Below are positions 20,629 through 59,300 of a stretch of 64,000 nt of DNA, piece by piece. How positions within the stretch are numbered: the stretch's first letter is position 1; the number at the start of each line of letters is the position of its first letter. Both the position numbers and the translations under genes were made by a program. This DNA is from Gammaproteobacteria bacterium (lineage in GTDB: Bacteria > Pseudomonadota > Gammaproteobacteria > UBA12402), in NCBI GenBank assembly GCA_050123335.1, contig JASFHH010000005.1:792-64791 (forward strand), in the 5' to 3' direction. The notes beneath the pieces were generated by a model. It was not told where the DNA came from. It worked only from the letters and a program-made list of their open reading frames with translations, and ran no database searches.

Positions 20629-20652
20629 AACCCCATCGAATTCGATGGGGTT
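20629..20652. repeat. GAATTC-centred hairpin, copy 1 of 3 (others at 21807..21830 and 22059..22082)
   Basis: aaccccatcgaattcgatggggtt / aatcccgtcgaattcgacgggatt / aaacccatcgaattcgatgggttt. The stem changes are compensatory. Copies 1 and 3 are preceded by caaatttaa. Confidence 0.5.
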
Positions 20653-20675
20653 AGAATACTACTTTTATTATAAAG

Positions 20676-21582: not shown

Positions 21583-21685
21583 TGTTAAACCTCTATTTTT
21601 AATTTTTAAAATTATCAAACGGTAGATTATCGCAAATAAAAAAATTAAAAACTAGCGTAAAAACTACGGGGTTTTGGGAATTATT

Positions 21686-21708
21686 TGGGCGGTGGGAATC
21701 GAACCCGC
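21686..21708 (-). other. Second partial tmRNA 3'-end copy (att remnant)
   Basis: gggcggtgggaatcgaacccgcg, preceded by the same ttttgggaattattt as the 20549 copy. Confidence 0.55.
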
Positions 21709-23195: not shown

Positions 23196-23229
23196 GATTT
23201 TTTAAGAAATTTTTAAATGAGAGGAAAAC

Positions 23230-24057: not shown

Positions 24058-24186
24058 TTTGGAATATACGCTATTTAAATTTATTTTAGTAAAAAAATAT
24101 GTAAATTTTTGGATTGTAAGAAAAAATGATAAATTTAATATAAAGCGTATCTTATTAATATATTAGTTTCAAGTAAAGGTATTTAC

Positions 24187-24816: not shown

Positions 24817-25124
24817 CAAAGCAAATATTGGCAACATATCATTGGTTGATCTGATATATATGGTTGGAGCAGATATTCTTTAGAGCGCAATATAAAGCAA
24901 GATTTGTTTGTTGTACAGTTTGTACCTCAAAATAAAGTATATAATTGCTAAGATGATATTTGCTATGGATGAATGCTATTAATGTTGTTAATATCTGGCA
25001 GAGAAAGATCAGAACTAGTATTTTAAAATCGTCGCTATCAATCTATAATTAGGTTTGGAATTCATAACTTAGTTAAGCGATATTGCTGTAAAATGTTGCC
25101 ACAAACACCTTCATTAGAGTATAA

Positions 25125-25364
25125 AGTGGTCAACCCACGTATTATTCGTCAAACACCGCAACTCATTTGTTGCGCGCAGACGTTGATGTCAATACAATTA
25201 GAGCTTGGTTTGGTCATGTCTCAATTAATACAACCAATATTTATGCTGAGGTTGATATTGAGATGAAGGCTAAAGCGTTGGCATTATGTGAGATAGTAGA
25301 AATTAAACAAAAACTAAATTGTAATTATAATAAAAGTTTAAAGGGTTTTTTAGATGCCTTTTAA
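25125..25364 (+). pseudogene. int: Tyrosine recombinase/integrase C-terminal fragment
   Basis: …TATHLLRADVDVNTIRAWFGHVSINTTNIYAEVD… is the catalytic tail of phage-type integrases (H-x-x-R…Y region). An upstream in-frame stop leaves only ~80 codons. Confidence 0.65.
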
Positions 25365-25392
25365 TGTTCAATTATATAAATGAGAGTAAATA

Positions 25393-26309
25393 ATGATTAA
25401 AAATGTTCGCAAAAAAAACATCATTACTTAGCAAGAGTATACCTAAATGGTTTTTGTGATCAGAATAATATGGTTTGGTCATATCATAAAGATGATCTTT
25501 CAAAAATACATTGTCAAACACCAGACAATACAGCAATTGAAAAAAATCTTTATGCTGTGGATGGAATTGATGTTAATGTGTTTGAAGACTTTTTATCTGA
25601 CCAAATAGAAAGTCCAGCAGTAAATGCATTAAAGGAATTACAAAAAGGTCAACTGCCATCAAATAATGATAGACTTGTTTTAGCAAAATTTTTTGGCTTC
25701 ATGTTAGTACGAACTCCGTCATATAAGGCTTCTAATGAACAGCCATTTGAGCGTGAATCTAATATGTTACTAAAATTATACGTACAACATAAAGAGTGTT
25801 TTCAAAATTGGTGTAATAAATATGAAGGAATCAATAATCAACCTATAGCTAAAGATATTGAGCGACTAAGGCAAGAAATCTTAAATGGAAAATACATACT
25901 AAAACCACATCATAATTTTAGTCTTAATACTATAGGAAAATTGGGTTTAAGCATTGATTCTTATTTATTAAATATGAAATGGATAATGATAAAAGCACCC
26001 AAAGGTTATTTCTTTTTAACTTCTGACAATCCTGTTATTATCACAAATCCAGAGTGCAATGGATTTTATTCAACAGGATTAGGACAAGAAAACACTAGAG
26101 TTTTTATCCCAATTTCAAAGGAAATTGGTCTTCTTATGGTTAATTTAGATATTGATGGTTTTGACAATCAATCAATTGATAATAATAGTGAGATTGTAGG
26201 GCATATGAATAAAGCAATCATTCTGTTTGCATCCAAATTTATATTTAGTCATAAAAAAAACGACGACATTACACAATTAATAAAAAAAGTAACTGAAAAT
26301 AAAAATTGA
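25393..26309 (+). pseudogene. DUF4238-family protein, frameshifted in an A8 homopolymer near the 5' end
   Basis: ATG at 25393 (MIKNVRKK…) hits a stop after 12 codons. One extra or missing A in aaaaaaaa (25411-25418) restores …KKHHYLARVYLNGF…, the DUF4238 N-terminal HHY-x-x-x-YL motif. The downstream body contains the DUF4238 hallmark TSDNPV. Confidence 0.6.
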
Positions 26310-26479
26310 AATTATGTGTTGTAGACAGGGCAAAGTCGTTTTTCATCCTGTGTATGCGATTTTAAAAGCGCATTTACTTTTTTACATGTTTATAAAAGAT
26401 ATTAGTGTGACCTATACAGTTTAATTGAGCGGCGACTACTTAACGTTTGGCTTAGTGTTGCATGGATAAAGGCTTTTGG

Positions 26480-26940
26480 TTATTTACTTTAATTAGTTGC
26501 CCCCCAGACTGCCCCCCCCCTGAAATTGGCTTTGTTTTGCAAAAAACAAAGGTAGTTTATTCTATTTGCATTTTTCTTATCAATCTGAGATACTAAAAAC
26601 GTGCTAGTAACACACATGCAAAGCGGTAAAACTGCGTCCGATAACCGCGGTTTTTTTGTACCTAAATGTCGGGCGTTCGTTGGAATACAATACCCTTGGG
26701 AAATACAGCGAGCCACGCTTTGCAGTGGTTACTAACGCCTGACACCAATTAAATTTGGGATTATTAGTAAAATTGCAAAGGAGTAAAATCATGTCACATA
26801 TTTCAAAAAAATTATCTTTATTTATCAATAAGTTAATTGATGCAGAATAGTAAAAGTCTTACACAACAATCAGATGTTTTTCGGTGGTTAAAACATGCTC
26901 AATCATCCATAATTACTATGCGCAAGCTTTCTGAGGAGGA
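26480..26940 (+). other. Structured non-coding leader with poly-C tracts, long-range inverted repeats and a 19-codon ORF with strong SD
   Basis: gttgccccccagactgccccccccc (C6 and C9 tracts). The 22-nt arm gtgctagtaacacacatgcaaagcgg (26601-26626) is complementary to ccacgctttgcagtggttactaac (26712-26735). Hairpin ctttgttttgcaaaaaacaaag. aaggag-N7-ATG at 26791 gives MSHISKKLSLFINKLIDAE*. Locally GC-richer than its surroundings. Confidence 0.3.
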
Positions 26941-26942
26941 AA

Positions 26943-28289
26943 TTGATGACTGCGAAAATACATCAACCAGCGTGTGAATTGACTGAAGGCTGTTGGGTTG
27001 ATTTTAGAGAAATGGTGCAACAAGTTGAACCGGAATTGTTTGACATCATTGAGAAAATAAACCCAAATAAAGAGCACAAATTAATTAAAGCCAGATATTT
27101 ATATGGCGAGCAAATTACTGATCTTGGTACCATTTGTGTTCCAGATAAATTTGGCCGTTTAGTACGTTTAGATAACGCTAATGTCTCCAGTGAGTTGCAA
27201 GATCAATTGGGCTATTGTCCTACGCCGCTAGTTTTGCAATTAAAAAATGCTGGTGAGGTTTTTGTTGAAACAGAAGATCGCATCGCGCCATTAAATATTT
27301 TTATGCCGGGGGATATGTACGGGTTATATGAAATTTTAGTTCCGCTTTCTGGTTGTCCAGCCGTACCTTGTTGGAGTATTACATCCGGAGGCAGATCGGT
27401 ATTTTTAGCATCTAAAATTACCGATGCAATCGGTCACAAAAAATTGCGTAAGGAATTTGGTGTATCACCAGTTCCACCGAAAAACATCAAAGATCAATGG
27501 GCAACTATGAAAACTATTGCTAACCGAGGCAGAAAAGATAATCCTTGGTCATCAGAAATATTAATTTTTACCAAAGAATGGTTTACCGAAAAAGATGACG
27601 ATATTAATTGGATGAGATTTCAAAACTACTTGATGAAAAAAGCGTGGTGGCAATCTCGAAGTACTCGCGCACAAATTGAATATAGTATTATGTGGGAATC
27701 TTTTGCTAAAGCAGTGTGTGCTAGAAATTTAAAACCTAGTTCTTATATTGTTGATACAGTAAAACATTTAATGCTATTAACTGCTGGCACAACTCCCGGA
27801 TTTAAAGCGATTGATACCAGTGAAAACATCATGCCGTCAAAGATTGTAGAAAAAGCATATACGGACATTTACGGTTTAAAAGATTATGCGGCCATTATTA
27901 TGCATCCTCACGTAACTAAATTAAATAGTCATGATGAGCAAGTTTATTACTCGATGGCCTATCCTACTTTAATTTCCGGCACGCCGTCTATTCGTAAAAA
28001 CACAAACACCATGACTGAAATTCGTGACGTGCAGACATTGATGAAAATGCTTGAAAAAATATTATCTTCTTATGAAGATCGTGTTCATAATTCAATGAAA
28101 AACGTTAAGTTTGAATATTTTCATAGTGATGAAGATCGTTTTGGGGAAATCCTAAATAGCCATAGCATAACTAAAACTGATGCGGCAATCTTAAATATTT
28201 TAAACGAACGTTTTCCTGGTAAAAAATTTCCTTCATACGGTTCATTTTTCAGAGGGTGCATTAGAATAAGCAGGAAGAATGTTGGTTAA
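26943..28289 (+). CDS. Hypothetical protein (448 aa), convergent partner of the rSAM-Nudix gene
   Basis: Long ORF with no recognisable motifs. Its 3' end overlaps the 3' end of the opposite-strand rSAM-Nudix gene by 48 nt. Confidence 0.5.
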   Translation: MMTAKIHQPACELTEGCWVDFREMVQQVEPELFDIIEKINPNKEHKLIKARYLYGEQITDLGTICVPDKFGRLVRLDNANVSSELQDQLGYCPTPLVLQLKNAGEVFVETEDRIAPLNIFMPGDMYGLYEILVPLSGCPAVPCWSITSGGRSVFLASKITDAIGHKKLRKEFGVSPVPPKNIKDQWATMKTIANRGRKDNPWSSEILIFTKEWFTEKDDDINWMRFQNYLMKKAWWQSRSTRAQIEYSIMWESFAKAVCARNLKPSSYIVDTVKHLMLLTAGTTPGFKAIDTSENIMPSKIVEKAYTDIYGLKDYAAIIMHPHVTKLNSHDEQVYYSMAYPTLISGTPSIRKNTNTMTEIRDVQTLMKMLEKILSSYEDRVHNSMKNVKFEYFHSDEDRFGEILNSHSITKTDAAILNILNERFPGKKFPSYGSFFRGCIRISRKNVG

Positions 28290-29978
28290 AAACATTTTTT
28301 TAGTTGTAGGAAATAATTGTAACGTTAACAAATTCTCTGGCGAAAAATATTTGTATTCTGCAATTTCTCGCTTGTCAATTTTGTATTTGTTTTTACAGCC
28401 ATTGTTTTCTGCAATCCACCAATGCAACTCATCTACATCGTAATCAGCATTAGATGTGCCTATTTTTTTGATGGGAATTACCGCTAAACCAAGCTCCTCA
28501 TGAGCTTCTCTGATAACTGCTGCTTCCTCTGTTTCACCTTGCTCAATTTTGCCATGAATGGGTGCCCAATGATCTTTGTATGGCTTTTTATTTTGTTTTA
28601 CCAACAGATATTTTCCGTTTTGTATAATAACTATAACTACACCCGAACGTTTTTTATCGGATACACTTGCCACATTAACTATGTCACCTTGCATATAACG
28701 TTCATATTGTTTTTTAGTTAGTGGAATTTGCATAATTTTGTTAGCATTCATACAAGCTTTATCATTGGATTTTTCATTGGTTAAATAGACATGCGCTTTA
28801 GTAAAATTAAAATTGGCGTTTTGCTTTAGTAAAGCTACGATGTTTGCAAAACTAATGTTATTTTCCTTATCGATGCAAAATTGACAGTTTTTTGGAATGT
28901 TTTTTTGAAAATCTTGGATGTGGCTATTATTTTTCAATAAAGTTGCTATAGATTGAGTTTTATCATTTATTGTGCCTATTTTAGCTTTTGGCATTATACC
29001 ATTGCGAGCTAGGCAACATAATTGTAATGATAAATCGGCTAATATGATAAATCTTAATCGTGATATCCAGCAGAAATTAAAATCATCTTTTGGTTTGAAA
29101 GATATTCCATATTGTTTTTCAATAATAAAATCTCTTTTATCTTTGATGTTTTGTTTGAATATATTTATTTGATTTTCAACAAATGGAATGATTTCAGGGT
29201 GATCATCGTAAACTTTTCTACAAATATTTTTTCTAATAGCAATCCAGTTAGCCCCCACATCATACATATCACACATAAATTTACTGATGTTGCGATAATT
29301 TTCCGGAAGCATAATAAAGGTAGCACCAATAAATAATTCTTGTTCTCTATTAAATTTAATAGCCTCAACATGAACCGTTTTTATTTTCTTAATCAAGTTT
29401 TCGTAATTATGTGCCTTATCATTTGATTTATGAACTTGATATCTGGAATTATTATCAAAAGAATCAACACTAATTCGTAAATGATGAACGTAGTTAGCAA
29501 TAGTTTTAATAATATTGCCTTGTAATAAATCACCATTCGTTTCGACAGTAATTTTTAATTTTAAATCGGCTAAATATTTTATAATTTCGATAATTTTAGG
29601 ATGATTTAGAGGATCACCACCACCAGTTAATCTAACACTTTTTCCACCTAAATTTTTGAAATCATCAAAGATAGATTTAAGTTGGTCTAATGGCAATGTT
29701 GAATTTAACTTGGAATTTAATTTCTTTGAAAAACACATGATGCAATTATTTGAACAGTTACTAGTAACATCAATATCTAATCTTATAGGCGATAAAGTTT
29801 GATTAAAATATGCGCTTTTTATCGCTTTTATCCACTCATCTAATTGCTCAGGAAACATCTTAGCGTGATTTTGGTAAAAAACATATGTCTTAGCATTACA
29901 TATAGCGCATATTGCATTCCATTTGCCGTATTGTCGATTAACAAGAATATTTTCGTGGTAATTGAAAACCATCTTCAT
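28242..29978 (-). CDS. Radical SAM (SPASM/twitch-like) enzyme fused to a C-terminal Nudix hydrolase domain
   Basis: CX3CX2C motif (CSNNCIMC) with a downstream GGGDPL SAM-binding motif. Additional Cys-rich region (CWISRL…LCCLARN…CQFC). Nudix box GKIEQGETEEAAVIREAHEELGL at aa ~470-495. An N-terminal CxxC pair is also present. Confidence 0.75.
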   Translation of the reverse strand: MKMVFNYHENILVNRQYGKWNAICAICNAKTYVFYQNHAKMFPEQLDEWIKAIKSAYFNQTLSPIRLDIDVTSNCSNNCIMCFSKKLNSKLNSTLPLDQLKSIFDDFKNLGGKSVRLTGGGDPLNHPKIIEIIKYLADLKLKITVETNGDLLQGNIIKTIANYVHHLRISVDSFDNNSRYQVHKSNDKAHNYENLIKKIKTVHVEAIKFNREQELFIGATFIMLPENYRNISKFMCDMYDVGANWIAIRKNICRKVYDDHPEIIPFVENQINIFKQNIKDKRDFIIEKQYGISFKPKDDFNFCWISRLRFIILADLSLQLCCLARNGIMPKAKIGTINDKTQSIATLLKNNSHIQDFQKNIPKNCQFCIDKENNISFANIVALLKQNANFNFTKAHVYLTNEKSNDKACMNANKIMQIPLTKKQYERYMQGDIVNVASVSDKKRSGVVIVIIQNGKYLLVKQNKKPYKDHWAPIHGKIEQGETEEAAVIREAHEELGLAVIPIKKIGTSNADYDVDELHWWIAENNGCKNKYKIDKREIAEYKYFSPENLLTLQLFPTTKKMFLTNILPAYSNAPSEK

Positions 29979-30239
29979 TACCTTTATTTTTCAATGCCTT
30001 ATAGCGATGTTACTGGCAGTTTCTTGTTTTTTGAGTAAATCCAAGCCAAATGTAACATTTTTGTGTTGAAATTTCGATAACAAAAATAGCGTTTGAATTT
30101 AGATTATCAATCTTATTTTGAAGAAGCTATCATTAAGTTGAGTAATTAATATGCAGGAGTATTTTTAACCGATTCATCTGAAAAAAATAATAGCAAAAAC
30201 CACATTCAGGAAGAATCTTAATTTACAAGGAGAAATGTT

Positions 30240-32060: not shown

Positions 32061-32417
32061 TGGTGGAGGCGGCGGGAATCGAACCCGCGTCCGCGAACTC
32101 TCCGCCATCGGTTCTACATGCGTAGCTAATCATTAAATTTCATTATTTGCTGCCCGATTAGCAGGGATCACAAATAACTAGCCTAAGTTAAATTTAGCGG
32201 TATTGCCTTAGGCGCACTTTACCGCGAGCTTATGAAATATGACCATCAGATTCAAGCGCATAAGCACACTTGGGTGATGGGCTGTGCCTGTTTAAGCGGC
32301 GACAGCGTAAAGTTCGTCGTTTGCGACTACTTTGTTGCAGCATGATTTACGAGGTTAAGCTACGTCCTCGGCATGCCCCTTTGGTTTTGCAATCCACGTC
32401 GAAGCCGGGTCGCCCCC
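32061..32417 (-). ncRNA. ssrA: tmRNA (ssrA)
   Basis: The 5' end GGGGGCGACCCGGCTTCGACGTGGATTGC… pairs with the 3' end …GCGGGTTCGATTCCCGCCGCCTCCACCA. Internal tag reading frame GCAAACGACGAACTTTACGCTGTCGCCGCTTAA gives ANDELYAVAA*. Confidence 0.85.
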
Positions 32418-41051: not shown

Positions 41052-41232
41052 AGGTTTTGGTATAAAAATTTTGCCACAAACGCTCTTGCTACCACATGTG
41101 AGTGAGAGTATTATATGCTTAAATTATTGTGCCCCCGTTTTCGGGGATGACCCGAAGAGTTTTGCTTCTCCCCCTATAAGAACCCCCATCGAAAAAAATA
41201 TTTTGCACTGCGTGCAAAATTAGAATATTAAA

Positions 41233-41304
41233 TAGGCGATAGTGGTTTCGAACCACTGACCTCTGCCGTGTGAAGGCAGCGCTCTACCTCTGAGCTAATC
41301 GCCC
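41233..41304 (-). tRNA. tRNA-Val (anticodon CAC)
   Basis: The reverse complement GGGCGATTAGCTCAGAGGTAGAGCGCTGCCTTCACACGGCAGAGGTCAGTGGTTCGAAACCACTATCGCCTA folds as a cloverleaf with a TTCACAC anticodon loop. The 5' half resembles E. coli tRNA-Val (GGGTGATTAGCTCAG). G1-U72 wobble; no encoded CCA. Confidence 0.7.
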
Positions 41305-41317
41305 AATGCGAAGTATT

Positions 41318-47010: not shown

Positions 47011-47088
47011 GAATCGAATTTATTTTTGTAAAAATCGCTTGACGCAAAGGCTGCTAATCGGTTTAATGCGTGATAGTTTTTGTTTTAT

Positions 47089-47161
<73 letters not shown>

Positions 47162-47969
47162 TATTATTTTTCAAGGTCTATACCCGGATCATGGGTTACG
47201 TTTTATACCGAAGACATAGGTAATACTCTTGGACCAAAAGCCTAATAGTGTAACCTATGTCTCCGGCATATTCTGTTATCTATGTGTCAGGTAGCGCACA
47301 AGGCTTTAAGCGATTTTTCAGTTTTCCAAATTTAGTGTTGTGTGTAATTCTGGTGTAATTGTGCAGAAAAAATTGTGATTTTTATTAGTTGATTTTATTA
47401 TTCGTTGGAAGCGTATAGTTTTTCTAATATATCCATTGCTGACTGAATATGCTCACCGTTTTGATGATTGTAGTGATTATGTAAAGCTTTACATAATCAC
47501 TATTTGTTATGACTATCTGCTTAATTATATTAATACTTATCTTATAATCTGCTTTATTCTACATACTTTAAAAGAACGTAAAAATAAGCTTAAAATGCAA
47601 GCTGATATAAATTTACTGCAGCAAAAAATTAAGGAAATCAATATTGCAAAAGAGTTTGCTGATGCTAAAAAAAGAACAGTTGAAAATAAAATAGATGTTT
47701 TAGAAAAACAGATTGCTAAGTTAAAGCAACAATTAAAAAATTGCGCGGTCTTTATTTCGTAAAATAAAGGTGGTGAGAACAATCCGAACCATGATTTTTT
47801 TCATTTTTGAGATTTATTGTGGGAATTTCTTACGTTATCATCGAATGGAAATAATAAAGTTGATCCTAAAGTTTTAACTCTATCAAAACTGGTAGATTCA
47901 ATCACGTTTCGTAAAATGATGTACAAAACTATAACTAATAGTTAAAACTAGTATCGATGAGAAAAATTA

Positions 47970-49172
47970 TTATAATGGCTTTATTTTGCTAGTTTTACAA
48001 CTATGTAGTTCAATATCACGTAACAATTTTTTATGTAAGCTCGCTAGCAACCCTATATAATCTTTTTGAAACAACTCACTTAAAATCCAATATTTTTTAT
48101 AGTTCAGAATTTTGTAAGTATCATTGTTTGAATTTAATAATAATGTTAGAAATCTTTCGGCAGATAATATATCTTTTTTTCTTATTTTAAATGCTATAGA
48201 AGCAAAGATAAGTGATTGAACTCTCCCAAAGTTTTTATAGAATCTTTTGCTTAAAAATAATTTTGTATACCAATTTCTCGTAAAGTTCCCATTATTTTTT
48301 ATGCGAAGTGAAAATGATGTAAAGTTTTGTTCTTTCATCTCATTAAACACATTTCTTATTTCATAAGTTTTTTCTATACTAGAATATAATTTCTTTCCCA
48401 TGTAAAAATTATCAAAACAATACTTATTGTTAGGGTTAAAATTATTTTTTGTCTTTTTATTATAGTGTATGACTTCTTGGTGATTTCCGTAAAATTCTGG
48501 GATAAAAGTGGCTATATACAAAAATAAATCGGTAGGCAATGACCCATTTAATAAAAGCGCGACACTAACAACATATTTAAACATTTCTTTTTTAAAGTTT
48601 TGGGTTGTTTTAAGAAAGCTTAATTCATTTATAATATTTTTTAATTTTCTATCATATTTATTTAATTTAGTTAAAAATGTAACATTACTTCTATGACAAA
48701 TATTGTTGTCTTTAATAAGTTTATGTAGTTGCTTTGCTGAATATAACAATCTACTTGGATTAATTGAATAAAATCTTACATTATATGGTAATTTATTATA
48801 ATAAAGTAAGCTGTAATCACATTGATGTGTTGTAATTTCAACAGTGGTGCTGATATTGCCAACTTTTTTTACTACTTTTGTTCCATCTTTATATTCTTTT
48901 ATGCATTCTGAAAAATTGTTATCTATCATTTCATTGTTGATTGATAAAAAAGGCATTAATCTATCTAATTCAAAGACTTTACACGTATATATAACTGGTG
49001 GGTGTGTGGTTACCGTATTATATGAAGGTATAAAAGTAATGGTTTTGGATACGCCAAAAATCATTTTATGTTTTTTACATGTATGTAAAATTTCATCCCA
49101 TATTAGCATATATTCTTCTTTAATTTTTTCATATTTCTTAATTTCTTTTTTTTGTTTCAAATGGAATAACAT
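47970..49172 (-). CDS. Hypothetical Asn/Lys/Tyr-rich protein (400 aa), islet cargo
   Basis: ORF only. Very AT-rich codon usage and no recognisable domain. Confidence 0.45.
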   Translation of the reverse strand: MLFHLKQKKEIKKYEKIKEEYMLIWDEILHTCKKHKMIFGVSKTITFIPSYNTVTTHPPVIYTCKVFELDRLMPFLSINNEMIDNNFSECIKEYKDGTKVVKKVGNISTTVEITTHQCDYSLLYYNKLPYNVRFYSINPSRLLYSAKQLHKLIKDNNICHRSNVTFLTKLNKYDRKLKNIINELSFLKTTQNFKKEMFKYVVSVALLLNGSLPTDLFLYIATFIPEFYGNHQEVIHYNKKTKNNFNPNNKYCFDNFYMGKKLYSSIEKTYEIRNVFNEMKEQNFTSFSLRIKNNGNFTRNWYTKLFLSKRFYKNFGRVQSLIFASIAFKIRKKDILSAERFLTLLLNSNNDTYKILNYKKYWILSELFQKDYIGLLASLHKKLLRDIELHSCKTSKIKPL

Positions 49173-49445
49173 ATAATATATCTCCTAATTGTTATCTTTT
49201 TAAGAAATCTTGATTCATTGGTTGCGTATTATAATAAAAACAAGTTGGTATTTCTATCTCTCAAATTAAACTATTTATTTGGCATTACAACATTTTTTCA
49301 TATCATTAGGTCATAATTAAATTATAATAATGGATTATAAGGTTTATGCAAGTGTTTACTTTATGATTGTTTACTTTATAATCGCAATATAAATTGCTTA
49401 TATTGTTTCGCCAATTATCGAAATGCTAATAGTATGGATTGAGTT

Positions 49446-50852
49446 ATGTATAAAGAAAAACCAAATTTTTTTGTATTGTTTGCATCGGCCATCGCCATTT
49501 TTGTTATATCAATGGATATTGCAAATGCAAATATTAGTACGCCTTTTATAGCGGATTCATTTCACTTAACAATAAATTGTGCTTCGCTTGTTTTACTAAC
49601 CTATTATTTGGCATTAACCAGCTTACTTTTGCCGTTTGGCAGATTAAGTGATTTAAAAGGAACAATGAAAGTACTTAAAATAGGGTTTGTAATTTTTATT
49701 TTTGGATCTTTTTTTTCCGGGTTATCTACAAATATATGGTTGCTAGGAGTTTTTAGATTTTGTCAGGGGATTGGTGGAGCAATGTTGTTGACAACCTATG
49801 GGGCTACGGTTACAAAGTACTTGCCGTCTTATTTTACAGGCAGAGCATTTGGAGTTATTACGATTTTTGCTGGCGCCGGTTTTGCTTTCGGTTTTTTGCT
49901 AGGAGGCCTTCTTATAAGATACTATTCATGGAGATTGGGATTTCTGATTAATATTCCTTTCTGTGTTATCGGGCTATTTCTTCTTAAAGAATACTTTGTC
50001 GATATTAGGGAGATAAGCCAGCAAAATGCCATGAAAAAATTTGATGTAATAGGTAGCGTATTGATTTCAATTGTTTTCTTTTTGTTAGCTTATTTACTAA
50101 ATCAATTTAATAATATATTAGTACTATATATTTTTGCAATTATTGTTGTTGGTATTATTTGTTTTATATTTTTTGTTTATAGAGTAAAAAATTGTCCTAA
50201 TCCACTTATAGATATTAATCTTATTAAAGATTCTGCATTACTATTTGCTTTTATTAGTGTTGCTATTGTTAATATGGTATTTGATGGTTTTAATTTTATT
50301 GTGCCATTTTATTTAAAAATGATAAAACAACTTCCTGCAGCAGAGATAGGTATTATTTTAACAATTTTACCAATTACTTCTTTATTTGCTGGGTTTGGAA
50401 TTGGATATTGCATAGATAAATGTGGTGCGCAAAGAAATATCATTTTCTCTACAGTAATGTTGGTTTTATCCTCAATGTTGTTTTTTTGTTTTCAACAATA
50501 TACTTCATTGATTTATATAATTATTTCTTTGATAGTATTAGGTGTGGTTATTGCTATTTTTTTTACAGCAAACATTACATTTATTATGGGTCATGCTAAC
50601 TCAGAAAATGCTGGTATGGTAGCATCAATAAAAGCTGTGGTTTCATATTTTGGGGGATTTGTTAGTATTGCAATATTCGCGCAAATATTATCTGGTAATT
50701 ATATTATTAAATCAGAAGCTATTCATAAAGTTTCTGCCCAATACAATTTGATGATGCATTTTAGATATGCTTGTTTGTTTAGTGTGGTATTATCAGTGAT
50801 TGTGTGCTTTTTATCTTTTTTTTCTAAACAAAGAAAATGCCAAAATAGTTAA
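49446..50852 (+). CDS. MFS transporter (DHA2/EmrB-like drug:H+ antiporter, ~14 TMS)
   Basis: 468 aa with multiple TM helices. MFS motif-A-like GRLSDLKG between TM2 and TM3. Confidence 0.75.
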   Translation: MYKEKPNFFVLFASAIAIFVISMDIANANISTPFIADSFHLTINCASLVLLTYYLALTSLLLPFGRLSDLKGTMKVLKIGFVIFIFGSFFSGLSTNIWLLGVFRFCQGIGGAMLLTTYGATVTKYLPSYFTGRAFGVITIFAGAGFAFGFLLGGLLIRYYSWRLGFLINIPFCVIGLFLLKEYFVDIREISQQNAMKKFDVIGSVLISIVFFLLAYLLNQFNNILVLYIFAIIVVGIICFIFFVYRVKNCPNPLIDINLIKDSALLFAFISVAIVNMVFDGFNFIVPFYLKMIKQLPAAEIGIILTILPITSLFAGFGIGYCIDKCGAQRNIIFSTVMLVLSSMLFFCFQQYTSLIYIIISLIVLGVVIAIFFTANITFIMGHANSENAGMVASIKAVVSYFGGFVSIAIFAQILSGNYIIKSEAIHKVSAQYNLMMHFRYACLFSVVLSVIVCFLSFFSKQRKCQNS

Positions 50853-50912
50853 TTGGCTATATAACATTTGGGTTGCTTTGATTAATAATTTTTTGTGTTA
50901 TTATATGTTTTT

Positions 50913-52685
50913 TTAATGATATGTTCCTGGTTGTAATGTTACAGTATCTTTTGATTTTTCCTCGGAGATATTTTCAAAATTGACGTTACTTTGTGAAGTT
51001 TCTTCAATGATGGTAGTGCATCGATTAGAAATTTCAGACCAATTAAAATTTTTAAGATTAGTGTGAACTTGTCCCCACATTTTATCAATTTCAGCAGGTG
51101 AAGCAATAGTTAAGAAAGTTATTAATTTTCCAACGATTGTCATCACTTTATTTTGAATACTTTTTGTAAAAGGTAGGGTATCTTGGGCAAAATTAAAAGA
51201 GCCTTCTATTGAACCAGCAGTACTAGTGAGAAGAGTTGCAATGCATACAAATATATATAAGACTAATTGTTCTGGAACAGGGGTTATCGCAATTGTGGTA
51301 ATGCCAAGAAGTAATCCACAAAGTATAGATAATGCTAGACATATTAACGTTCCAAATTTTGACAAGGCTGTTTTTGTATTGCAATTTGTACTATCATTTT
51401 TATCGGGTTTATGGCACCTGATGAAATTAAGAGCGCTTTTTAATAATCTAAAAATTGTTAAAGTATAAAAAATAAAAAATAAAAATTCCGAGCCTAGTCC
51501 TATACAATATCCTAAAATTTTTGGTACTGTATAACCTATCATCGCCCAAAAATCTGTAAAAGCGTTTTCTGCTTGTTCTCGAAAGCCTAAGGTTCCAGGG
51601 ATTATTATAATTGCGCTAGAAAGCATTAATGAATAAGTCGTTACAGTTTTATACAAGGGAATATCTTTATTGAGAAGTCGTGCTATAAATTCAGCCTTTT
51701 GTTTTTTTGACAAGCATTTTGAGTGATTGTTAATTATATCAACAAGATCAAGTAACTTACTTTTGTGTAGCGCATCAAAATTTCTGCAAATACCTTTTAG
51801 TAGAAAACTGCGTTTTTGTTTATTGGTTAAGTTAGTTGGAATTTGTTTGCGTTGTATACAGCTAAAGAAACTATATTTATTTTCTCCAAGCTTCCTGCAT
51901 TTTTTACACAAATAGCTATATATAGTGCTCATAAAATTGTCAAAAGAATTAATCAATAAAGGCAGATTATCACTCAGTAAATGTTCAACACCGCTTGCAA
52001 TGGCTATTCCCCCAGGTATTCCTAAAGGGAAGGCAATGCTAAATTTAATTGCATCGGAAGAGATTAAAGAGACAGGCAGTCCTAATTTAATAAAATTAGC
52101 AAAAGTAAGCATAGGAAAGAAAATTCGAAGAGTTCCTCCTAAATATTCATCTACTTTTTTTAAAATAGCCAAAGGAAAACTTCTAATTTTTTTCAGGTAT
52201 TTTTTACAATTTATATGTTTATTAATTTCATACTCAACTTTCAATTTAGTATAATAGGTGCTCAATGGTGCTTGAGCTAATACAATAATTACGCTGCCTA
52301 ATATTCCACATGAAATTAATAAACTTTTGGCAGTCGGATCTTTGACTTGAAAAATACCTAATGGGCTTGGATTATCAGATTTCACAACTATTTTATCAAG
52401 AAAAAGGAAAAATAGACTGGGTAAGCTAAACAAAATTGAAGAGGCTGCTATAAATCCCCCTGTATATGCGGTTAAACCGTTACATATTTTATAACTAATA
52501 GAAATACAGTCTTTTTTATGATGTGTACAACAACATATTTCAATTTTTGTATCTTTGGTTTTTATATTGTAGATAATTAGTGGTTTTGTTTCTTCAGTAT
52601 TTTTTTTTGAAGAAGTTGTTTTACATCTATTAGAATCGCAGTAATACGATAATAGTCGGACACTTTTTTCAATGCCTTCATACAT
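50913..52685 (-). CDS. Large polytopic membrane protein (590 aa), hypothetical
   Basis: ORF with >8 hydrophobic segments and a Cys-rich N-terminus (CCCTHHKKDC). No family recognised. Confidence 0.45.
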   Translation of the reverse strand: MYEGIEKSVRLLSYYCDSNRCKTTSSKKNTEETKPLIIYNIKTKDTKIEICCCTHHKKDCISISYKICNGLTAYTGGFIAASSILFSLPSLFFLFLDKIVVKSDNPSPLGIFQVKDPTAKSLLISCGILGSVIIVLAQAPLSTYYTKLKVEYEINKHINCKKYLKKIRSFPLAILKKVDEYLGGTLRIFFPMLTFANFIKLGLPVSLISSDAIKFSIAFPLGIPGGIAIASGVEHLLSDNLPLLINSFDNFMSTIYSYLCKKCRKLGENKYSFFSCIQRKQIPTNLTNKQKRSFLLKGICRNFDALHKSKLLDLVDIINNHSKCLSKKQKAEFIARLLNKDIPLYKTVTTYSLMLSSAIIIIPGTLGFREQAENAFTDFWAMIGYTVPKILGYCIGLGSEFLFFIFYTLTIFRLLKSALNFIRCHKPDKNDSTNCNTKTALSKFGTLICLALSILCGLLLGITTIAITPVPEQLVLYIFVCIATLLTSTAGSIEGSFNFAQDTLPFTKSIQNKVMTIVGKLITFLTIASPAEIDKMWGQVHTNLKNFNWSEISNRCTTIIEETSQSNVNFENISEEKSKDTVTLQPGTYH

Positions 52686-52861
52686 GATATGTTCCTATTT
52701 TTTTTAATTCTTTAAATAATGTATAATAACCTAAAATTAGTAATAGCGCTAATAATAAATTAGAAAAAAGTAAAATATTAAGCAAGACAATTTTTAACAA
52801 AAAATGATTGTATAATAGATTGTAGTTATTAGTTATAATTATCTTTTTTAAATATGACAAA

Positions 52862-53104
52862 AATATTGGTGACGTATAAGAAAAACTTTGAATGGAGAAG
52901 ACTTCGCTTGTAACATGTATAAAACGCGACCCAAAAAGATTATATAGTAAAACTTTTAATAAAAAGATTTCCAGCATGAATGGAATAAGCTCTGAATATG
53001 AACCACCAACTAATTCTGAACTAGTGATTAACACTGAAAATAACAAAATTTCCGAGTGTGTAACACTAATTACTGAATATTTGTCCATAAGCCATTTAAT
53101 ATAA
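52862..53104 (+). pseudogene. cysC: Adenylyl-sulfate kinase (cysC) C-terminal remnant
   Basis: …VTCIKRDPKRLYSKTFNKKISSMNGISSEYEPPTNSELVINTENNKISECV… parallels the APS-kinase C-terminus (…[36 protein letters not shown]…). Only ~55 codons are retained. Confidence 0.5.
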
Positions 53105-53122
53105 ACTTGTTATGGATAATTT

Positions 53123-53875
53123 CTAGGTCAAACGATATTGCGATAAAAATTTGTAATAATGTTTATTGTTCTCATATAATTCCAGCAGTGTTTGGGAGTT
53201 GTATAACATGTCAAATGATGTAGATTCTGTTTTCTTAAATCCAGAGCTTTCTCCAACTTCTTGAAAAGCTATTTTGAATATTTCCCATCGTGAGTCAAAG
53301 CATGGCTTCCATTGTAAAGCCGTAGATAAATATGGGATATCTACTGCTTTACAATATGCTCTAATTATTTTTTCAGGGTTATTAACTAAGTCGTCTGCAT
53401 CAATAACAACAGGAATTGTACCAGTTTTTTCTTGAACGGCTCTAAATATTTGATATTGTTCTCGAATACCAATACATAAAGAGTTAAAGTTTAATTTTTT
53501 ACTTAACTTGGCTAACGATATAATTGTTTTTTTGAGATCTCGGATGATAAATGTATTTGTTATTTTCTTAATAAAATCTGTATCTTGAATAAACTCATTC
53601 GAAACAAAAAATGACAGCTCTTTAAAAAAAGTGTTTTTTGATTTAGAACTATTTATTAATAAATTTTTTATTTGATTATATGATGCTGGATTATCGAGTT
53701 GCTCAATAATACGAGGAGGGCTTAAATTAAACTGTTGCTGTCCTTTATGTTTTTTGGAATAATAATAAGCAAATGGTTCATGAAAAATTTCAAAATCACC
53801 GCGTTCAATCATCATACGTTCAAATGCGGTAGAGAGACTACGAGAATATCCCCATAAACCAATTAACTTTTCCAT
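53123..53875 (-). CDS. Putative sulfotransferase-family protein
   Basis: N-terminal GYSRSLSTAF resembles a PAPS 5'-phosphosulfate-binding loop. ~250 aa. Lies next to the cysC (PAPS synthesis) remnant. Confidence 0.4.
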   Translation of the reverse strand: MEKLIGLWGYSRSLSTAFERMMIERGDFEIFHEPFAYYYSKKHKGQQQFNLSPPRIIEQLDNPASYNQIKNLLINSSKSKNTFFKELSFFVSNEFIQDTDFIKKITNTFIIRDLKKTIISLAKLSKKLNFNSLCIGIREQYQIFRAVQEKTGTIPVVIDADDLVNNPEKIIRAYCKAVDIPYLSTALQWKPCFDSRWEIFKIAFQEVGESSGFKKTESTSFDMLYNSQTLLELYENNKHYYKFLSQYRLT

Positions 53876-54077
53876 ATATGTTCCTCACTATTAGCTATGT
53901 ATACTAGCAGACAAGGCAAAAATTGTTTAATAACTGCGCATTGTTCAAAATAACTACAAAAATCAATGCTTGAATAAACCTTGAAAGTAATTATTGTGAC
54001 AATAATTTTATTATTGAAAAATTATAGCAAGTTCAGTTGAATATTTAAATAAACAAAAATATAAGTTCAGAATTTTG

Positions 54078-54461
54078 TTAACCTAAATTCAAGTTTAAAA
54101 ACGTATTTCTGTATAAAATGTTTATATGAAAGGCGTGTGTAATTTTGGTGTAATTGTACAGTTTGTTTATTTTCACCAAAACCTTGAACATCTTTGCTGT
54201 ATCAGTTGTGCGTGCTTTTCCATTTGGCGTTTCCATTTTCAAGTGCCCGATATTATCGGACACTTGAGTAAATCCTTGTTTTATAAGTTTATTTTTTAAA
54301 TCAGACCAATATTTTCTTGGTCTGGTTGAACCAGTTAATGCTTCAATGATATCGATAACAGAAAACCACCATTCGCCATTATGGATGGTTTTGCGGATTT
54401 CTTTGCCTTTAAAGACAGCAATTTTGGTTGATGTCTCTATAGCTGTGTTATTTTTGTTCAT
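54078..54461 (-). CDS. Bro-N/KilA-N-like domain protein (phage antirepressor-like), possibly truncated
   Basis: …KIAVFKGKEIRKTIHNGEWWFSVIDIIEALTGSTRPRKYWSDLKNKL… is the Bro-N pattern, 127 aa. Its 3' end contains the direct repeat shared with 47338. Confidence 0.5.
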   Translation of the reverse strand: MNKNNTAIETSTKIAVFKGKEIRKTIHNGEWWFSVIDIIEALTGSTRPRKYWSDLKNKLIKQGFTQVSDNIGHLKMETPNGKARTTDTAKMFKVLVKINKLYNYTKITHAFHINILYRNTFLNLNLG

Positions 54462-54935
54462 AATTTGTTTTCCCTTTTAAGTTTGGATGATTTTTCTTAG
54501 CCTCCAAAATTTCTTTTTTAGCCTTTATTAATCGTTCGTCATTGTTCTGGAAATTAAGAGCTGATGCGGTGGGATTTAGATTATAGTATTATGATTAGAT
54601 TAACTTTTAGTGAGGAGAAGTCAATTAAAAAATTAATTTTGCTGTAATGAAATTGGGTTTGCATTAATGGACCTGTAATTATTATTAACATCTTCTTTTA
54701 ACAATTTCAAGAGCTAACATAGTACCACCTGAAATTAACAAGCCGGTACTTACGTTTAATAAAAATTCTATTTGGGGGTTATATTCTGCAACAACATTAT
54801 CTATATTTAAAATGCAAATATTTTATTTACCATTTTATTGTAATCAACTTTTATTCTAGACCATCAACCTTAACAGAGTCTTAAGGAATTTCTCATTTCA
54901 AATAAGCGTTTGATTATATTGATAAACTTTTTTAC

Positions 54936-56172
54936 TTTGTAGGGGACAATTTTGTATGAATAAAGAAATAACTCGCTGATTTTACGGGAAAATGTATAAT
55001 CTCATTTTTGAATATTTGAAGTTTAAAAGGAGGTTATATGAATCCCACCAGCGAGTTAGTGAAGATTTTAAGTAAAAATCTCGATTGGCACAAGTCTAGA
55101 TTGAATTGTTTTGTAAAAATGTTGCTATCGTTGTTCGTTGTAAGAACAGTTAATCTGCGAGAATTAGCGGTAGCATTCGATAGTAATGCGCAACTTGGTT
55201 CGCGATATAAAAGGATAAAAAGGTTTTTTGCGCAATTCAAAATTAAGCAAGAAGTTTTAGCCAAATTAATTTTCGAATTATTTTTTTTTAAAATCAGATA
55301 AAATTTATTTAACAGTGGATCGCACAAACTGGTGGTGGGGTAAATCCAGCATTAATATTTTAACTTTAGGAATTGCGCATGAAGGAATTTCGATTCCATT
55401 ATTTTGGAATTTACTTAAGGGCACCAGTTCGACAGGCGATGATCAGTTTGAAATTGTAAAAAGATTTGTAAAAGTGTTTGGTAAAGATTGTATTGCTGGC
55501 GTTTTGGCAGACCGAGAATTTGCGAATAAATATTTTTTTAGGAATTTGGTTAAAGCCAAAATACCCTTTTATATAAGGGTTAAAGAAGGATCGAAAGCAA
55601 ATATATTTTATGAAAAAACATTTAAGGTTAAGAAATTATTTAACCAGCTAAAACAGAAATCTCAGATGTCATATATTCAGCCAGTTACAATTCATGGACA
55701 AAAATTATTTGTAGCGGCAGGAAGATCTGAGTCAGGTGAATTATTACTTGTGGCAACGAATCAATACAAAGCAAAAAATGCGGTATCAATATATTTACGC
55801 AGATGGGAAATTGAGGTTTTATTTCAAAGTTTAAAAAGCAGAGGATTTAATTTTGAAGATACACATATTACCAAGCGTGAAAGAATTGAGACTTTGATGT
55901 CCTTACTTGTTGTTGGTTTTAGTTGGGCGCATAAAATTGGTGAATGGCGTGATACTAAAAAACCTGTTGTTTTTAATAAATATCGTGATGGCAGAAGACC
56001 GCAATATAGTTTCTTTCGTTATGGATTAGATTTTATTCGTGATGTGATTTTACATGTAGCCAGACTTAAAAAACAGTTTCGGCGGTGTTTGAAGTTGCTT
56101 TTTTTTCCTCCGAAACCACTCAAAACTTCAATCCAGGAAACAATATCATGATCTTTTGTTCCCTACAGAGAC
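54936..56172 (+). mobile_element. IS4-family insertion sequence (~1.24 kb) with imperfect terminal inverted repeats
   Basis: IRL ctttgtaggggacaattttg (54936-54955) vs the reverse complement of IRR gtctctgtagggaacaaaag (56153-56172). Encodes a DDE transposase. Confidence 0.7.
55038..56151 (+). pseudogene. IS4-family DDE transposase split by a +1 frameshift at a T10 run
   Basis: The two ORFs 55038..55301 and 55315..56151 are in different frames, joined across tttttttttt (55283-55292). The C-terminal YLRRWEIEVLFQSLKSRGFNFE matches the IS4 Y-R-E-K signature. Confidence 0.7.
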
Positions 56173-56301
56173 TTTTTTAAGTTTTTTTGTTTTTGTTAAT
56201 AAAACCTTAAGAATTAGTTGGTATTATCAACGCAAGAAACCAATAGCAGTTTGTTTATCATAATTGCTATTTTAAAAACTATAATTAACAGGAACTTTAA
56301 A

Positions 56302-59300
56302 ATGAAAATGCATAAAATTTTAAGAAAGCTAATCGAAGATTATTTCATTCATCATTCATTAAATATATCAAATGTAAACACAATTAGAAAATCGTTAATC
56401 ACAGCATTGTCGAAACACATTAAAACATTAAAATTTTACGATGCTCCGGCATTTAAATTTTCAGATCCAAAAAAACCAAACTTAAAAGAATTTACAGATG
56501 AATTAAATAAGCTAATAGGAAATTTTCTTGTGTCTCAGAATGAGCTTTCTACCATTATAAATAAAATAGAAAATGAAACTAAAACAAAGAAAATTTCAAG
56601 TGATGATGATTTGGTTAATTTTTTGGAGGACCTTCACAAAAATCACCAAAAATACTTAGATAGATTATCCCCTCAAATACTTGAAATAATTACGTCTAAA
56701 AGACCTAATTATGATCTTAATCTTTTATTCAGGCAAAAAATCAAGCTAACCACTAAATATTTTTTATTTATGGCCCTAAAAAGCAGGAAAAATTTTATCG
56801 CGTGGGTATATGAAAATCAAAAAGTGACGTTTGATCTTGGGATGATGTTACAAAACAAAGGTTTTCCTTGTCTTGCAAAGAAAATTTATCAAGAACTTCT
56901 TTCGTTGAATGAGCAAGAAATTAAGATGTCCTTCTTATCCAAATCACAAAAGCCCCAGTTAGCACCAATGTTTATTTATCTTGATTTCAATAAATTAATA
57001 GAAAAACTGGATCATAATGCATGTAAAGCCACAGCTTTTTTTATCGAACAAATGGCTGAATCAATTTTGTTCAATAAATCTATCGACGCATGGATCCATT
57101 TTCATCAAAGGTCTTCTGAAGAAGAACCTTTTTCTAACATCTATACACCTATCGAAAATCGAAACAACTATAATTTAGTTTCTAAACAATTGCGAAATCT
57201 CTACACAATTATATCGCCAATATATAATGGTAATCGTACGTTTTATGATATATGGAATAATAACCTGGTAATAAAAAACTGTTTTGATTTATCTAATCGT
57301 CTGGCAAAAAGGATAATCGAAAAACTAATACTTTCACTTTATGATAAATACCAAATAGTTCGTATAAAACGAGGTGAAATTAATGGCAGAATAGCCAAGA
57401 TGATACAAAATCTTTATTTTTTAACTAATTCAAAAAGTGACAATTTAATTGCTAGAATAAAAAATTACAGTCGTAATCAAATAATTGATCAAGCAATGAA
57501 AGAAAAAGATTTATTTGTGGGCAAAGATGAAAAATGCCTATATTCGGAAGTTAAAACAGAAATTACATATTTACTTAGAGATCTGGCTTTTCTGCTTAAA
57601 ATTATATATAGAACGCCTACTAAATTAGATCCTTGCACAAAAGTATTGGATGATTCGGAAATTAATAATTATATATTAGCAATAGAAGCAATTATTAAAG
57701 GCGATCTTAATGCGTTAAAAGAAGTTTTTAATATTAAATTTTTAACATGTTATATTACTCCTGAAATTGCACAAAAGAAAAAGAAATTAAATATTCCTTT
57801 TTTGGGCGCAGAAGGATGGACATTATTGCATTGTGCTTTTGATAATGCATTTATCGGGAAAAAGAAAAAAGCATACGTTAAAATTTTAGAATTTTTATAT
57901 GAAAAAATTGAAACATATGAATTAAATTTTATTTTTGATGCGTTTTCCACAAGGTTAGATTTTTCTAACATTAAGGAAAAAAAACCACTGTCAAAATATT
58001 TGCAGTCATATTATTTCTATAACTTTCCTGAATATTCTCGTAGGCGTATTAATACAAAATTATTGTCATCATCCGATGCGCAGAAGTTGTATAAAAAAAT
58101 AACACCACTTTACTGCCTATCTGATAAATGGAGTGATGCATATAATAAACTCATATCAAAATACCATCTTGGATCATTATTAATAGAAAAACGTGAATAT
58201 AAACAAGCTCGTGATAATTTTAAATTTATTATAGACGTTTATGAAAAAAATAATCAAAAAAATCAAAGAGCGAAGTATAACGATAAATATTTAAACCTTG
58301 TCGCAAAATCATACTATTTTTTGGGAATATGTAATTTTAGATTAAACAAACCATCAATGACTGATGATATGATCAATAAACTTGACAACGCGAGTCGTTA
58401 TATAAAAAGCACAACAATTATGTTTCGTCGTGCTATGCAAGTTGCAAAGAAAATCAAATCTAAAACAAACGATACTTATAGGTTTTTAAGTAGCTGTTAT
58501 TGTACTTTAAGCGCTTACTATAGACAAAAGGCTCAAAATGGTAGTGCTGTTAAATCTCTATGTTTAGCAAGAAAACTATTAGAAGAAGCCTTATCAACAG
58601 AACAAAATCGCACATTAAGAAGCCTTGATTTTTGGCAACTGCGGTCGATAGCAAATGAACAGTATCAAATATTGTACAATTCATCCGTCAAAGAAGGTAT
58701 GTCAGAGTTACAAGTCCTTGTAGTGAGCTTAATGGATATTGAAATGTCAGCTATTACACCAAAAAAAATGTTTTCCGATGTTATTTATGATGTTAATAAA
58801 AACGAACGTATAGAAATTATGGAAAATATTTTACTCTGGTCAGAATTTAATAAAAGTCTCCTTGTGCGCAGATTTGGCACAGGAAAAAATTATAATGTAT
58901 TAATTAATAAATTAGGAAATATCTGGGAAAAGCTCGCATTTGAAAGGGTATATGAAAAAGTAATTAATCTCAATCAAAAAGTAAAAGATAAATTACCGCT
59001 GCAAATTGCGATGGAAGCAAATAATGCAAAAGCAGTTACACTATTATTAAAGTATGGAGCAGATATTAATAAATTGAAAGACTTTGATCCAATACAATGG
59101 GCAATTGATAATAATCATCATAAAATAGTTACTTTATTTGTGTTAAAAGGATTTAAGATCGATTATGAATTTAAAACGGATTATTATGATGATAGCTCTC
59201 CAAGAAATCTGCTTGATTATGCTATTCAGCAAAATAATAGTGAGCTGATTAATATTTTATTAAGTAAACAACATAAAGTAGACAGGATAAACATAAAAAA

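Follow-up and report, generated by a model that had tools for sequence, protein, structure and literature searches.

A recurrent 27-nt motif downstream of tRNA genes brackets an integrase-less 6.8-kb segment in an uncultivated gammaproteobacterium

How does a multi-gene segment come to lie between two short direct repeats beside a tRNA gene when it carries no integrase of its own? This question is raised by a 64,000-nt stretch of contig JASFHH010000005.1 (positions 792 to 64,791 of the forward strand; hereafter the window), which belongs to the metagenome-assembled genome (MAG; locus tags PVI75_...) of an uncultivated, AT-rich gammaproteobacterium. Downstream of its tRNA-Phe gene, two copies of a 27-nt repeat enclose 6768 nt (47367-54134), here called the islet. 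A sequence-only reading of this DNA had taken the islet for a horizontally acquired island delimited by the repeats, with eukaryote-like genes and the remains of a sulfation cassette. The underlying observation is confirmed by our analysis, and the interpretation is partly supported. The feature that deserves attention is the boundary motif itself, which is conserved across unrelated organisms and usually lies after tRNA genes, at the point where variable DNA starts.

The pattern GTGTGTAATTYTGGTGTAATTGTRCAG has exactly two matches in the 64 kb, both on the plus strand and thus in direct orientation, 25/27 identical to each other and placed 2 nt away from the positions previously given for them. 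Not one match was obtained in 100 dinucleotide-preserving shuffles of the sequence. The identity between the two copies is confined to these 27 nt, their flanks aligning no better than shuffled sequence, and an inverted copy of the motif was found nowhere in the 64 kb. Internally, the repeat is composed of two GTGTAATT half-sites 11 nt apart, giving an 8 + 3 + 8 + 3 nt structure. The left copy begins 178 nt beyond tRNA-Phe, which is the last conserved core feature on this side (in the order lptD-surA-tRNA-Phe), and the right copy points into a truncated gene on the opposite strand; no decayed tRNA fragment was found to the left of the latter. An Rfam search of the region returned the tRNA only, so that the repeat matches no known RNA family. 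Searches of annotated phages, plasmids and IMG/VR gave no significant match to the motif, and a literature search gave no paper with its sequence in a relevant setting. The window also contains a tmRNA (tag ANDELYAVAA; 32061-32417, minus strand) and a tRNA-Val (41232-41305, minus strand), with no motif copy near either of them; the only half-site matches, at 32432 and 32947, carry 3 mismatches and are within chance expectation.

Both repeat copies coincide with breakpoints of homology or with a gene truncation. For the left copy this follows from the comparison with the nearest available relative, a sister-species MAG (L004, JASFHF010000012) that was recovered by scanning a genome collection with SurA as the query and that is 87-93% identical to the window at the nucleotide level over the core at 34.7-47.2 kb. 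Positions 47300-47374 of the window match positions 11168-11243 of L004 at 88%, including the 27-mer, and the identity stops at 47374, approximately 8-10 nt past the left copy, with complete divergence thereafter. Past the motif, only 1.1 kb of the L004 contig is available, with several TACACCGAACTT iterons in a row and then a TIGR04255-family gene. This comparison, with different DNA after the 27-mer in the two relatives, bears out the earlier statement that accessory DNA lies beside tRNA-Phe. Look-ups of the exact proteins, which could have revealed variants of the locus such as islet-less alleles in the population, returned only the same contig. L004 is devoid of the 137-nt segment that directly follows tRNA-Phe in the window (47163-47299), and its motif begins 52 nt past the tRNA. 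When folded, the additional segment gives an imperfect hairpin of considerable length (-43 kcal/mol); blastn found no further copy of it in the window, and it may be an insertion resembling a miniature inverted-repeat transposable element (MITE) between tRNA-Phe and the conserved post-tRNA block. For the right copy, the breakpoint is provided by the truncated gene in whose tail it lies. Homology of this gene to its relatives ends at residue 95-98, which corresponds to approximately nt 54168-54177; the edge of the repeat, at 54161, is thus 7-16 nt away. The remaining ~30 codons of the ORF cross the repeat and extend into the islet.

The motif is not restricted to the window and its relative. 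A metagenome scan with the 23-nt core GTGTGTAATTNTGGTGTAATTGT, in which an exact match of 22 bases was required and for which fewer than one chance hit was expected, found the core at four further distinct metagenomic loci: L014, L016 (=L013), L015 and L017. The motif is exact in all of these and in L004, the flanks are unrelated, and across all instances only ~25 nt are shared. In L014, the core lies 51 nt past a tRNA-Met that follows rpoH, and in L016 it lies 68 nt past the 3′ fragment of a tRNA that ends a DUF3987 (P4-like) island. Accordingly, in three independent tRNA contexts (Phe, Met and the one 3′ fragment) the motif is situated 50-70 nt past the tRNA 3′ end and the DNA that follows on its right differs from one context to the next, and the arrangement of a tRNA 3′ end, a T-run and the motif is common to four loci. 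L015 and L017 carry the core in other contexts without a nearby tRNA. Two details speak to the history of the site. The separate integrated island of L016 ends ~68 nt before the motif, which means that the motif was already native downstream of that tRNA, and L004 has, in comparison with L014, an insert of ~140 nt directly 3′ of the motif, so that DNA has been added at that position more than once.

Some further observations concern these loci. In L004, five to six tandem TACACCGAACTT iterons occupy positions 11255-11330 directly 3′ of the motif, another copy is found at 12320-12340 past the TIGR04255 gene, and on the other strand the iterons (GGTGTAAAAGTTC) resemble the motif half-site GGTGTAATTGTG. 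The island in L016 (5203-8782) comprises the DUF3987 gene, which is P4-type primase-like, small BrnT/BrnA-like open reading frames (ORFs) and the terminal tRNA 3′ fragment of 32 nt. In L017 (~90-290, minus strand), the ~125 nt that bear the motif are located between two copies of the perfect palindrome TGCAATTAATTGCAA, as if a short piece of DNA had been inserted at a palindromic site.

Three loci have a TIGR04255-family gene 125-270 nt downstream of the motif and in the same orientation. The TIGR04255 protein of L014 is 69% identical to that of L004, and the one of L016 shares just 23% identity with these two, although the motif in L016 is 23/23 identical; the TIGR04255 gene of L016 is followed by a Septu-like pair, PtuA/PtuB. 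TIGR04255 genes at 42-50% identity (L018-L027) showed no motif when up to 5 substitutions were allowed, and therefore the motif is not simply the operator of this gene. A remnant of a TIGR04255 gene was not found in the window, nor were TIGR04255 relatives found in viral contigs. The TIGR04255 modules that we located (L004 11475-12218, L014 751-1715, L016 9110-10440, L018 10001-11468 and L022 6359-7847) consistently continue with an ORF of 60-76 aa, one of ~171-183 aa, or both. They reside in variable regions beside toxin-antitoxin genes, an IS1595 element or the Septu-like pair, and the module may be of a defence type.

The repeats do not mark the edges of the accessory DNA. From 0.35-0.39 in lptD-surA, the GC content drops at 47.4 kb to 0.24-0.31; it does not recover before 60.4 kb, where the core genome resumes with thiD-thiE-thiM and a GC of 0.36. 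The interval from tRNA-Phe to thiD (47163-60362) is a low-GC, lineage-specific accessory region of 13.2 kb, and because the low GC persists to 60.4 kb, the repeat-bounded segment makes up only its tRNA-proximal half. The region runs on for 6.2 kb past the right copy, and the view of the two repeats as the borders of an island is not supported. Its distal edge, between an ankyrin gene and thiD, is occupied by a palindrome with a stem of ~38 bp that overlaps the thiD stop codon. The positions of all features are compiled in Table 1.

Table 1 Features of the tRNA-Phe locus, in window coordinates
Feature	Position	Strand	Basis and remarks
tRNA-Phe (GAA)	47088-47162	+	ARAGORN; Rfam tRNA 73.5 bits; collinear with L004
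137-nt insertion relative to L004	47163-47299	not assigned	alignment with L004
T-rich post-tRNA segment directly 5′ of left repeat	47300-47339	+	common to L004, loosely to L014
Left copy of 27-nt repeat	47340-47366	+	pattern match
108-aa ORF, doubtful	47436-47762	+	coiled-coil-like; no family match; called as gene in JGI (Joint Genome Institute) contig
400-aa orphan gene	47970-49172	-	soluble; Asn+Lys 22.5%; GC 24.4%
DHA2-type (EmrB/QacA-like) major facilitator superfamily (MFS) transporter, 468 aa	49446-50852	+	~14 hydrophobic segments; MFS_1 E 1.3e-39
590-aa orphan gene	50913-52685	-	polytopic membrane protein; ~6 hydrophobic segments (hydropathy); 21 Cys (3.6%)
cysC (adenosine-5′-phosphosulfate (APS) kinase) 3′ remnant	52892-53104	+	PF01583 positions 108-152 of 152, E 1.2e-9; TIGR00455 positions 123-184 of 184
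PF19798 (Sulfotransfer_5) sulfotransferase, 250 aa, intact ORF	53123-53875	-	Pfam 33.9 bits vs cutoff 23.2, residues 8-217
Promoter-like site TTTAAA-17-TGnTATAAT, 10/12	54021-54049	-	consensus match only
Truncated Bro-N-like gene	54078-54461	-	N-terminal third of a PDC-S13/phrog_15286-type protein (~280 aa)
Right copy of 27-nt repeat	54135-54161	+	pattern match; in tail of truncated defence-type gene
IS4-family insertion sequence (IS)	54935-56170	+	NF033591 E 7.5e-52, 176.5 bits vs cutoff 152
Ankyrin-repeat protein, 1361 aa, low GC	56218-60303	+	Ank_2 E 7.9e-23; weak AnkY/LegA9 match
Perfect palindrome, ~38-bp stem	60305-60380	not assigned	sequence; fold -62.6 kcal/mol
thiD, then thiE and thiM	60363-61253 (thiD)	-	core genome restart; GC 0.36

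We tentatively favor, at a little less than an even chance, the reading that the islet was inserted without an integrase of its own and that the 27-mer is an attachment (att)-like site for recombination in trans. The 27-mer would serve as such a site just downstream of tRNA terminators, and the 6.8-kb segment would have arrived, or would have been exchanged, by site-specific recombination that left one copy of the 27-mer at each junction. Because neither an integrase nor another recombinase was detected in any islet ORF or in six-frame Pfam searches of the spacers, the recombinase would have acted in trans, in a logic like that of Xer-exploiting elements such as Legionella LME-1. A number of points weigh against this proposal. 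No recombinase is linked to the motif, and neither an empty site nor an excised circle was seen. The GC content and the character of the genes are unchanged at the right copy. Two direct 8-nt half-sites with an 11-nt phasing are more operator-like than a typical palindromic crossover core. Since the DNA to the right of the right copy differs from that of the relatives, a simple history leading from attB to attL and attR is not reconstructable. Moreover, the exact 22-base scan makes the apparently perfect conservation of the motif partly a matter of ascertainment, and the similarity between the window and L015 ~30 nt past the left copy means that the functional unit is possibly longer than 27 nt. 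A more far-reaching version, which we consider quite improbable, is that the motif, in the form GTGTAATT-N3-GTGTAATT (23-27 nt), would be recognized by a hitherto undescribed system that acts in trans and loads and exchanges integrase-less cassettes with defence genes, effectors or metabolic oddments after tRNA terminators in several gammaproteobacterial lineages.

The half-site structure would fit the main rival account, in which the 27-mers are cis-regulatory operators for an OmpR/PhoB-type response regulator, the region was built by unrelated events and its bracketing by two copies is coincidental. Targets of such regulators consist of two half-sites one helical turn apart, for instance the CpxR site GTAAA-N5-GTAAA or the tandem box of Legionella PmrA, and they often precede genes that were acquired horizontally. 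The motif likewise has two direct half-sites separated by about one helical turn, each containing GTAAT, although spacing and fifth base deviate from the CpxR consensus and a consistent -10 element at a fixed distance is lacking. Its co-orientation with the TIGR04255 genes, a weak sigma-70-like site starting 7 nt past the left copy and the lack of a GC change at the right copy are also in line with an operator. However, the more distant TIGR04255 homologs do without the motif, and promoter-like sites are no more frequent than in shuffled sequence. An operator would also have to be reconciled with a right copy that points into the tail of a truncated opposite-strand gene, with the position of both copies at breakpoints, and with a conservation that is much stricter than operators usually show and, considering the divergent protein next to the identical motif in L016, far beyond the need of one. 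We therefore regard the operator account as somewhat unlikely. The motif could instead belong to a small non-autonomous mobile or repeat element that landed independently at several places, be it of the MITE type or one end of a larger defence cassette (e.g., the TIGR04255 module); the window copies would then be relics of two separate cassettes that have since lost their bodies by deletion or replacement. The palindromes flanking the motif-bearing segment in L017, the occurrence of the same motif and TIGR04255 module after two different tRNAs in L004 and L014, and the retention of the upstream block without the TIGR04255 gene at the left copy in the window are consistent with such relics. With just ~25 nt common to the different contexts, however, neither a body nor ends of an element are definable, and an inverted copy and a TIGR04255 remnant are both missing from the window, which makes this explanation unlikely.

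The tRNA adjacency, the low GC, the accessory content and the presence of an IS element would at first sight suggest a classic tRNA island that inserted into the 3′ end of tRNA-Phe by means of its own tyrosine integrase and has since degraded. This reading is largely refuted and appears very improbable to us: the terminal 22 nt of tRNA-Phe occur only once in the 64 kb when up to 3 mismatches are permitted, an integrase gene or remnant was found in no frame, and the repeat starts well past the tRNA in both relatives without overlapping it. Finally, a metagenome assembly of repeat-prone, AT-rich DNA could generate a repeat by chance or artefact. The gene order of the locus is, however, identical in a JGI metagenome contig, and an independent Logan assembly from a second sample (L001, run SRR11697952) has the same right junction, so that an assembly artefact is unlikely; together with the result of the shuffles and the recurrence of the motif in other organisms, this renders the explanation hardly credible.

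The preferred reading of an att-like site used in trans can be compared with three known ways of accommodating accessory DNA. As in P4-type islands inserted at tRNA genes by tyrosine integrases, the segment lies directly downstream of a tRNA, deviates in composition, carries accessory cargo with direct repeats at its edges, and differs between close relatives; in contrast to these islands, the segment is without an integrase, the sequence repeated on both sides of it does not stem from the tRNA 3′ end, and it accounts for no more than the proximal half of the accessory region. Integrative mobile elements exploiting Xer (IMEX), such as Legionella LME-1, integrate at the dif/XerL site, and the Legionella att/dif sequence is AAGTCTGATTATTTTGATAATC (PMC9765430, PMC5071653). 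LME-1 resembles the islet in being an insertion that lacks a recombinase and lies between directly repeated copies of a chromosomal site that is short (22-29 nt), low in GC and conserved amid variable surroundings, and in having a slightly altered downstream copy, with 3 substitutions as opposed to 2 in the window. An identification of the motif with the Legionellales dif/LME-1 att site was nevertheless rejected: the repeat is unrelated to AAGTCTGATTATTTTGATAATC, its half-sites are direct rather than inverted, and it is not located at a GC-skew inflection, the cumulative skew showing no sustained reversal across the window. Furthermore, since the motif occurs after different tRNA genes (e.g., tRNA-Met in L014), a single genome probably has more than one such site, unlike for LME-1. 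Integron platforms with attI and cassettes also combine a fixed site with variable cargo that is promoter-proximal, confined to one side and devoid of its own recombinase, but here no intI accompanies the site, attC-like imperfect palindromes are lacking, and the ‘cassette’ would be a multi-gene unit of 6.8 kb. New in this comparison is the combination of the tRNA-adjacent island theme with a recurrent, integrase-less boundary site that is not part of the tRNA.

Compared with its boundaries, the cargo of the islet is fairly ordinary: besides a pump and two orphan genes, it contains a sulfation pair that is apparently in decay. The Asn- and Lys-rich 400-aa ORF, the MFS pump and the Cys-rich polytopic 590-aa ORF are all present as described before. 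The MFS transporter matched TIGR00711 with an E value of 6.9e-38, below the cutoff of that model. The 400-aa protein matched only itself among 1.84e9 cluster representatives and the 590-aa protein only itself among 5.8e9 proteins, and both were without a match in Pfam, NCBIfam, PHROG or PADLOC; by these searches, the two are lineage-specific orphans. An AlphaFold2 (AF2) single-sequence model of the 400-aa protein was unusable (predicted local distance difference test, pLDDT, 35). ORFs of such lengths cannot be due to chance in DNA of 25-30% GC, because no stretch without a stop exceeded 138 codons in 200 shuffles. The cysC remnant is overlapped on the opposite strand by a 136-aa ORF (52678-53088, minus strand), which appears in the JGI contig as a gene of 118 aa, had no family match and is probably a spurious call over pseudogene DNA. 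The label ‘eukaryote-like’ is unsupported for the ORFs of 400 and 590 aa, which are without homologs, and the only protein of the accessory region with a eukaryote-like domain is the ankyrin-repeat protein, encoded outside the repeat-bounded segment.

The sulfation pair consists of the sulfotransferase and a convergent cysC fragment, arranged tail-to-tail and 18 nt apart. The fragment is an ORF of 70 codons, of which only the last ~62 (52901-53078) are recognizable by tblastn and frame translation; the P-loop and the kinase core are missing, and upstream this frame is interrupted by numerous stop codons. Judged by its profile matches, which cover the C-terminal part of the kinase as predicted, it is a genuine 3′ remnant of an APS kinase gene and hence a pseudogene fragment. 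With cysC reduced to a stub of 62 codons, the pair is unable to make its own 3′-phosphoadenosine-5′-phosphosulfate (PAPS).

The assignment of the intact neighbor as a sulfotransferase withstood both the profile check, with PF19798 above its gathering cutoff, and the fold check. We found 158 homologs, and all 120 that were listed are annotated as PF19798. Its AF2 model (pLDDT 87.7) gave Foldseek top matches in the PDB that are all PAPS sulfotransferases, led by CurM-ST (4gbm; E 1.5e-7, TM score ~0.5) and followed by OLS-ST, TPST1/2, SULTs and Stf0; the predicted fold thus resembles CurM-ST, OLS-ST and TPST (4gbm, 4gox and 5wri, with E values of 1e-7 to 6e-6). The CurM sulfotransferase was also the top match in a profile search of PDB sequences (E 0.02). 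All 18 invariant columns of the alignment are kept (18/18), including FHEPF and the RSxST and RDxxxxxxS motifs, which resemble the 5′-phosphosulfate-binding (5′-PSB-like) and 3′-phosphate-binding (3′-PB-like) motifs of PAPS sulfotransferases. In contrast, 13/51 of the columns conserved at ≥90% are changed and 38/51 kept, the lowest retention among the 23 aligned sequences; examples are K-D-M to K-E-L and W-x-x-W-H to F-x-x-A-F, so that these conserved residues of the PF19798 family are missing. The protein is the most divergent member of its alignment, the nearest homologs being 31-38% identical. Because 13 of the 51 conserved positions have been lost, it may either be drifting towards loss or be acting on an altered substrate with PAPS from another source, for instance that of the host. 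The promoter-like site of the minus strand lies inside the islet, ~145 nt upstream of the sulfotransferase start.

The genomic contexts of the homologs point to a substrate that differs from the one previously envisaged. Three of the five contexts examined are inside or beside OpuAC-type betaine/choline ATP-binding cassette (ABC) operons or beside betA/betB/TetR genes. In L007/L008 (3728-7569 and 900-3540, respectively) and L011 (6001-11256), the PF19798 gene sits in an OpuAC-type ABC operon, between the OpuAC binding protein and the permease, and in L009 (8001-12416) it adjoins genes for a betA-like glucose-methanol-choline (GMC) oxidoreductase, a betB-like aldehyde dehydrogenase and a TetR regulator; the proteins are 31-36% identical to that of the window. 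In none of the five was a cysC gene nearby, and a conserved sulfotransferase-cysC cassette was therefore rejected. From this family context, the most likely class of substrate is a small quaternary-amine alcohol such as choline, and the acceptor is probably neither a glycan nor a protein. The suggestion of host-mimicking sulfated glycans or of effector modification consequently finds no backing in these contexts. The low identity of 31-38% between the homologs and the window protein counts against transferring their presumed substrate. No member of PF19798 is characterized in the papers found, and the gene neighborhoods suggest that the family acts on choline-type osmolytes.

The DNA beyond the right repeat differs from its earlier description in two respects. 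The gene named Bro-N phage-like is present, but it scored below the Pfam cutoff (Bro-N positions 1-72 of 96, 19.6 < 25.6) and is better described as a truncated gene of the PDC-S13/phrog_15286 type. It matched PDC-S13, a candidate defence gene of PADLOC, at positions 4-89 of 286 (E 1.8e-26) and phrog_15286 at positions 4-92 of 274 (E 1.9e-15), full-length PDC-S13-type proteins having ~275-290 aa, which the window gene does not reach. The IS4-family element, thought to abut the islet, is real but starts 773 nt past the right repeat. The element inserted cleanly, has terminal inverted repeats of 15 nt (54935, 56170) and a 9-bp target duplication, ACTTTTTTA, and is unconnected with the 27-nt repeat. 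Its transposase frame is broken at a T9 run into ORFs of 87 aa (55038-55301) and 278 aa (55315-56151), representing either an inactivation or a slippage-prone site.

Other low-GC patches of the window (18987-30000) hold defence-like genes, namely a helix-turn-helix (HTH) plus M78 (ImmA/IrrE-like) gene at 18987-20102, Abi_C at 23230-24057, DUF4238 at 25470-26309 and a fusion of radical S-adenosylmethionine (SAM) and NUDIX domains at 28242-29978. An AAA_14/DUF4143 gene is located at 1794-2960.

The association of PF19798 genes with operons for betaine/choline uptake and oxidation yields a testable functional prediction for this family, namely choline-O-sulfate-type chemistry. If the 27-mer is a recombination site, it would represent a new way of slotting accessory and defence genes beside tRNA genes and would provide a simple sequence tag with which such hot spots can be located in metagenomes. 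Should the broader cassette-loading system also prove true, it would be a tRNA-anchored counterpart of the integron attI site or of the hijacking of dif by IMEX elements.

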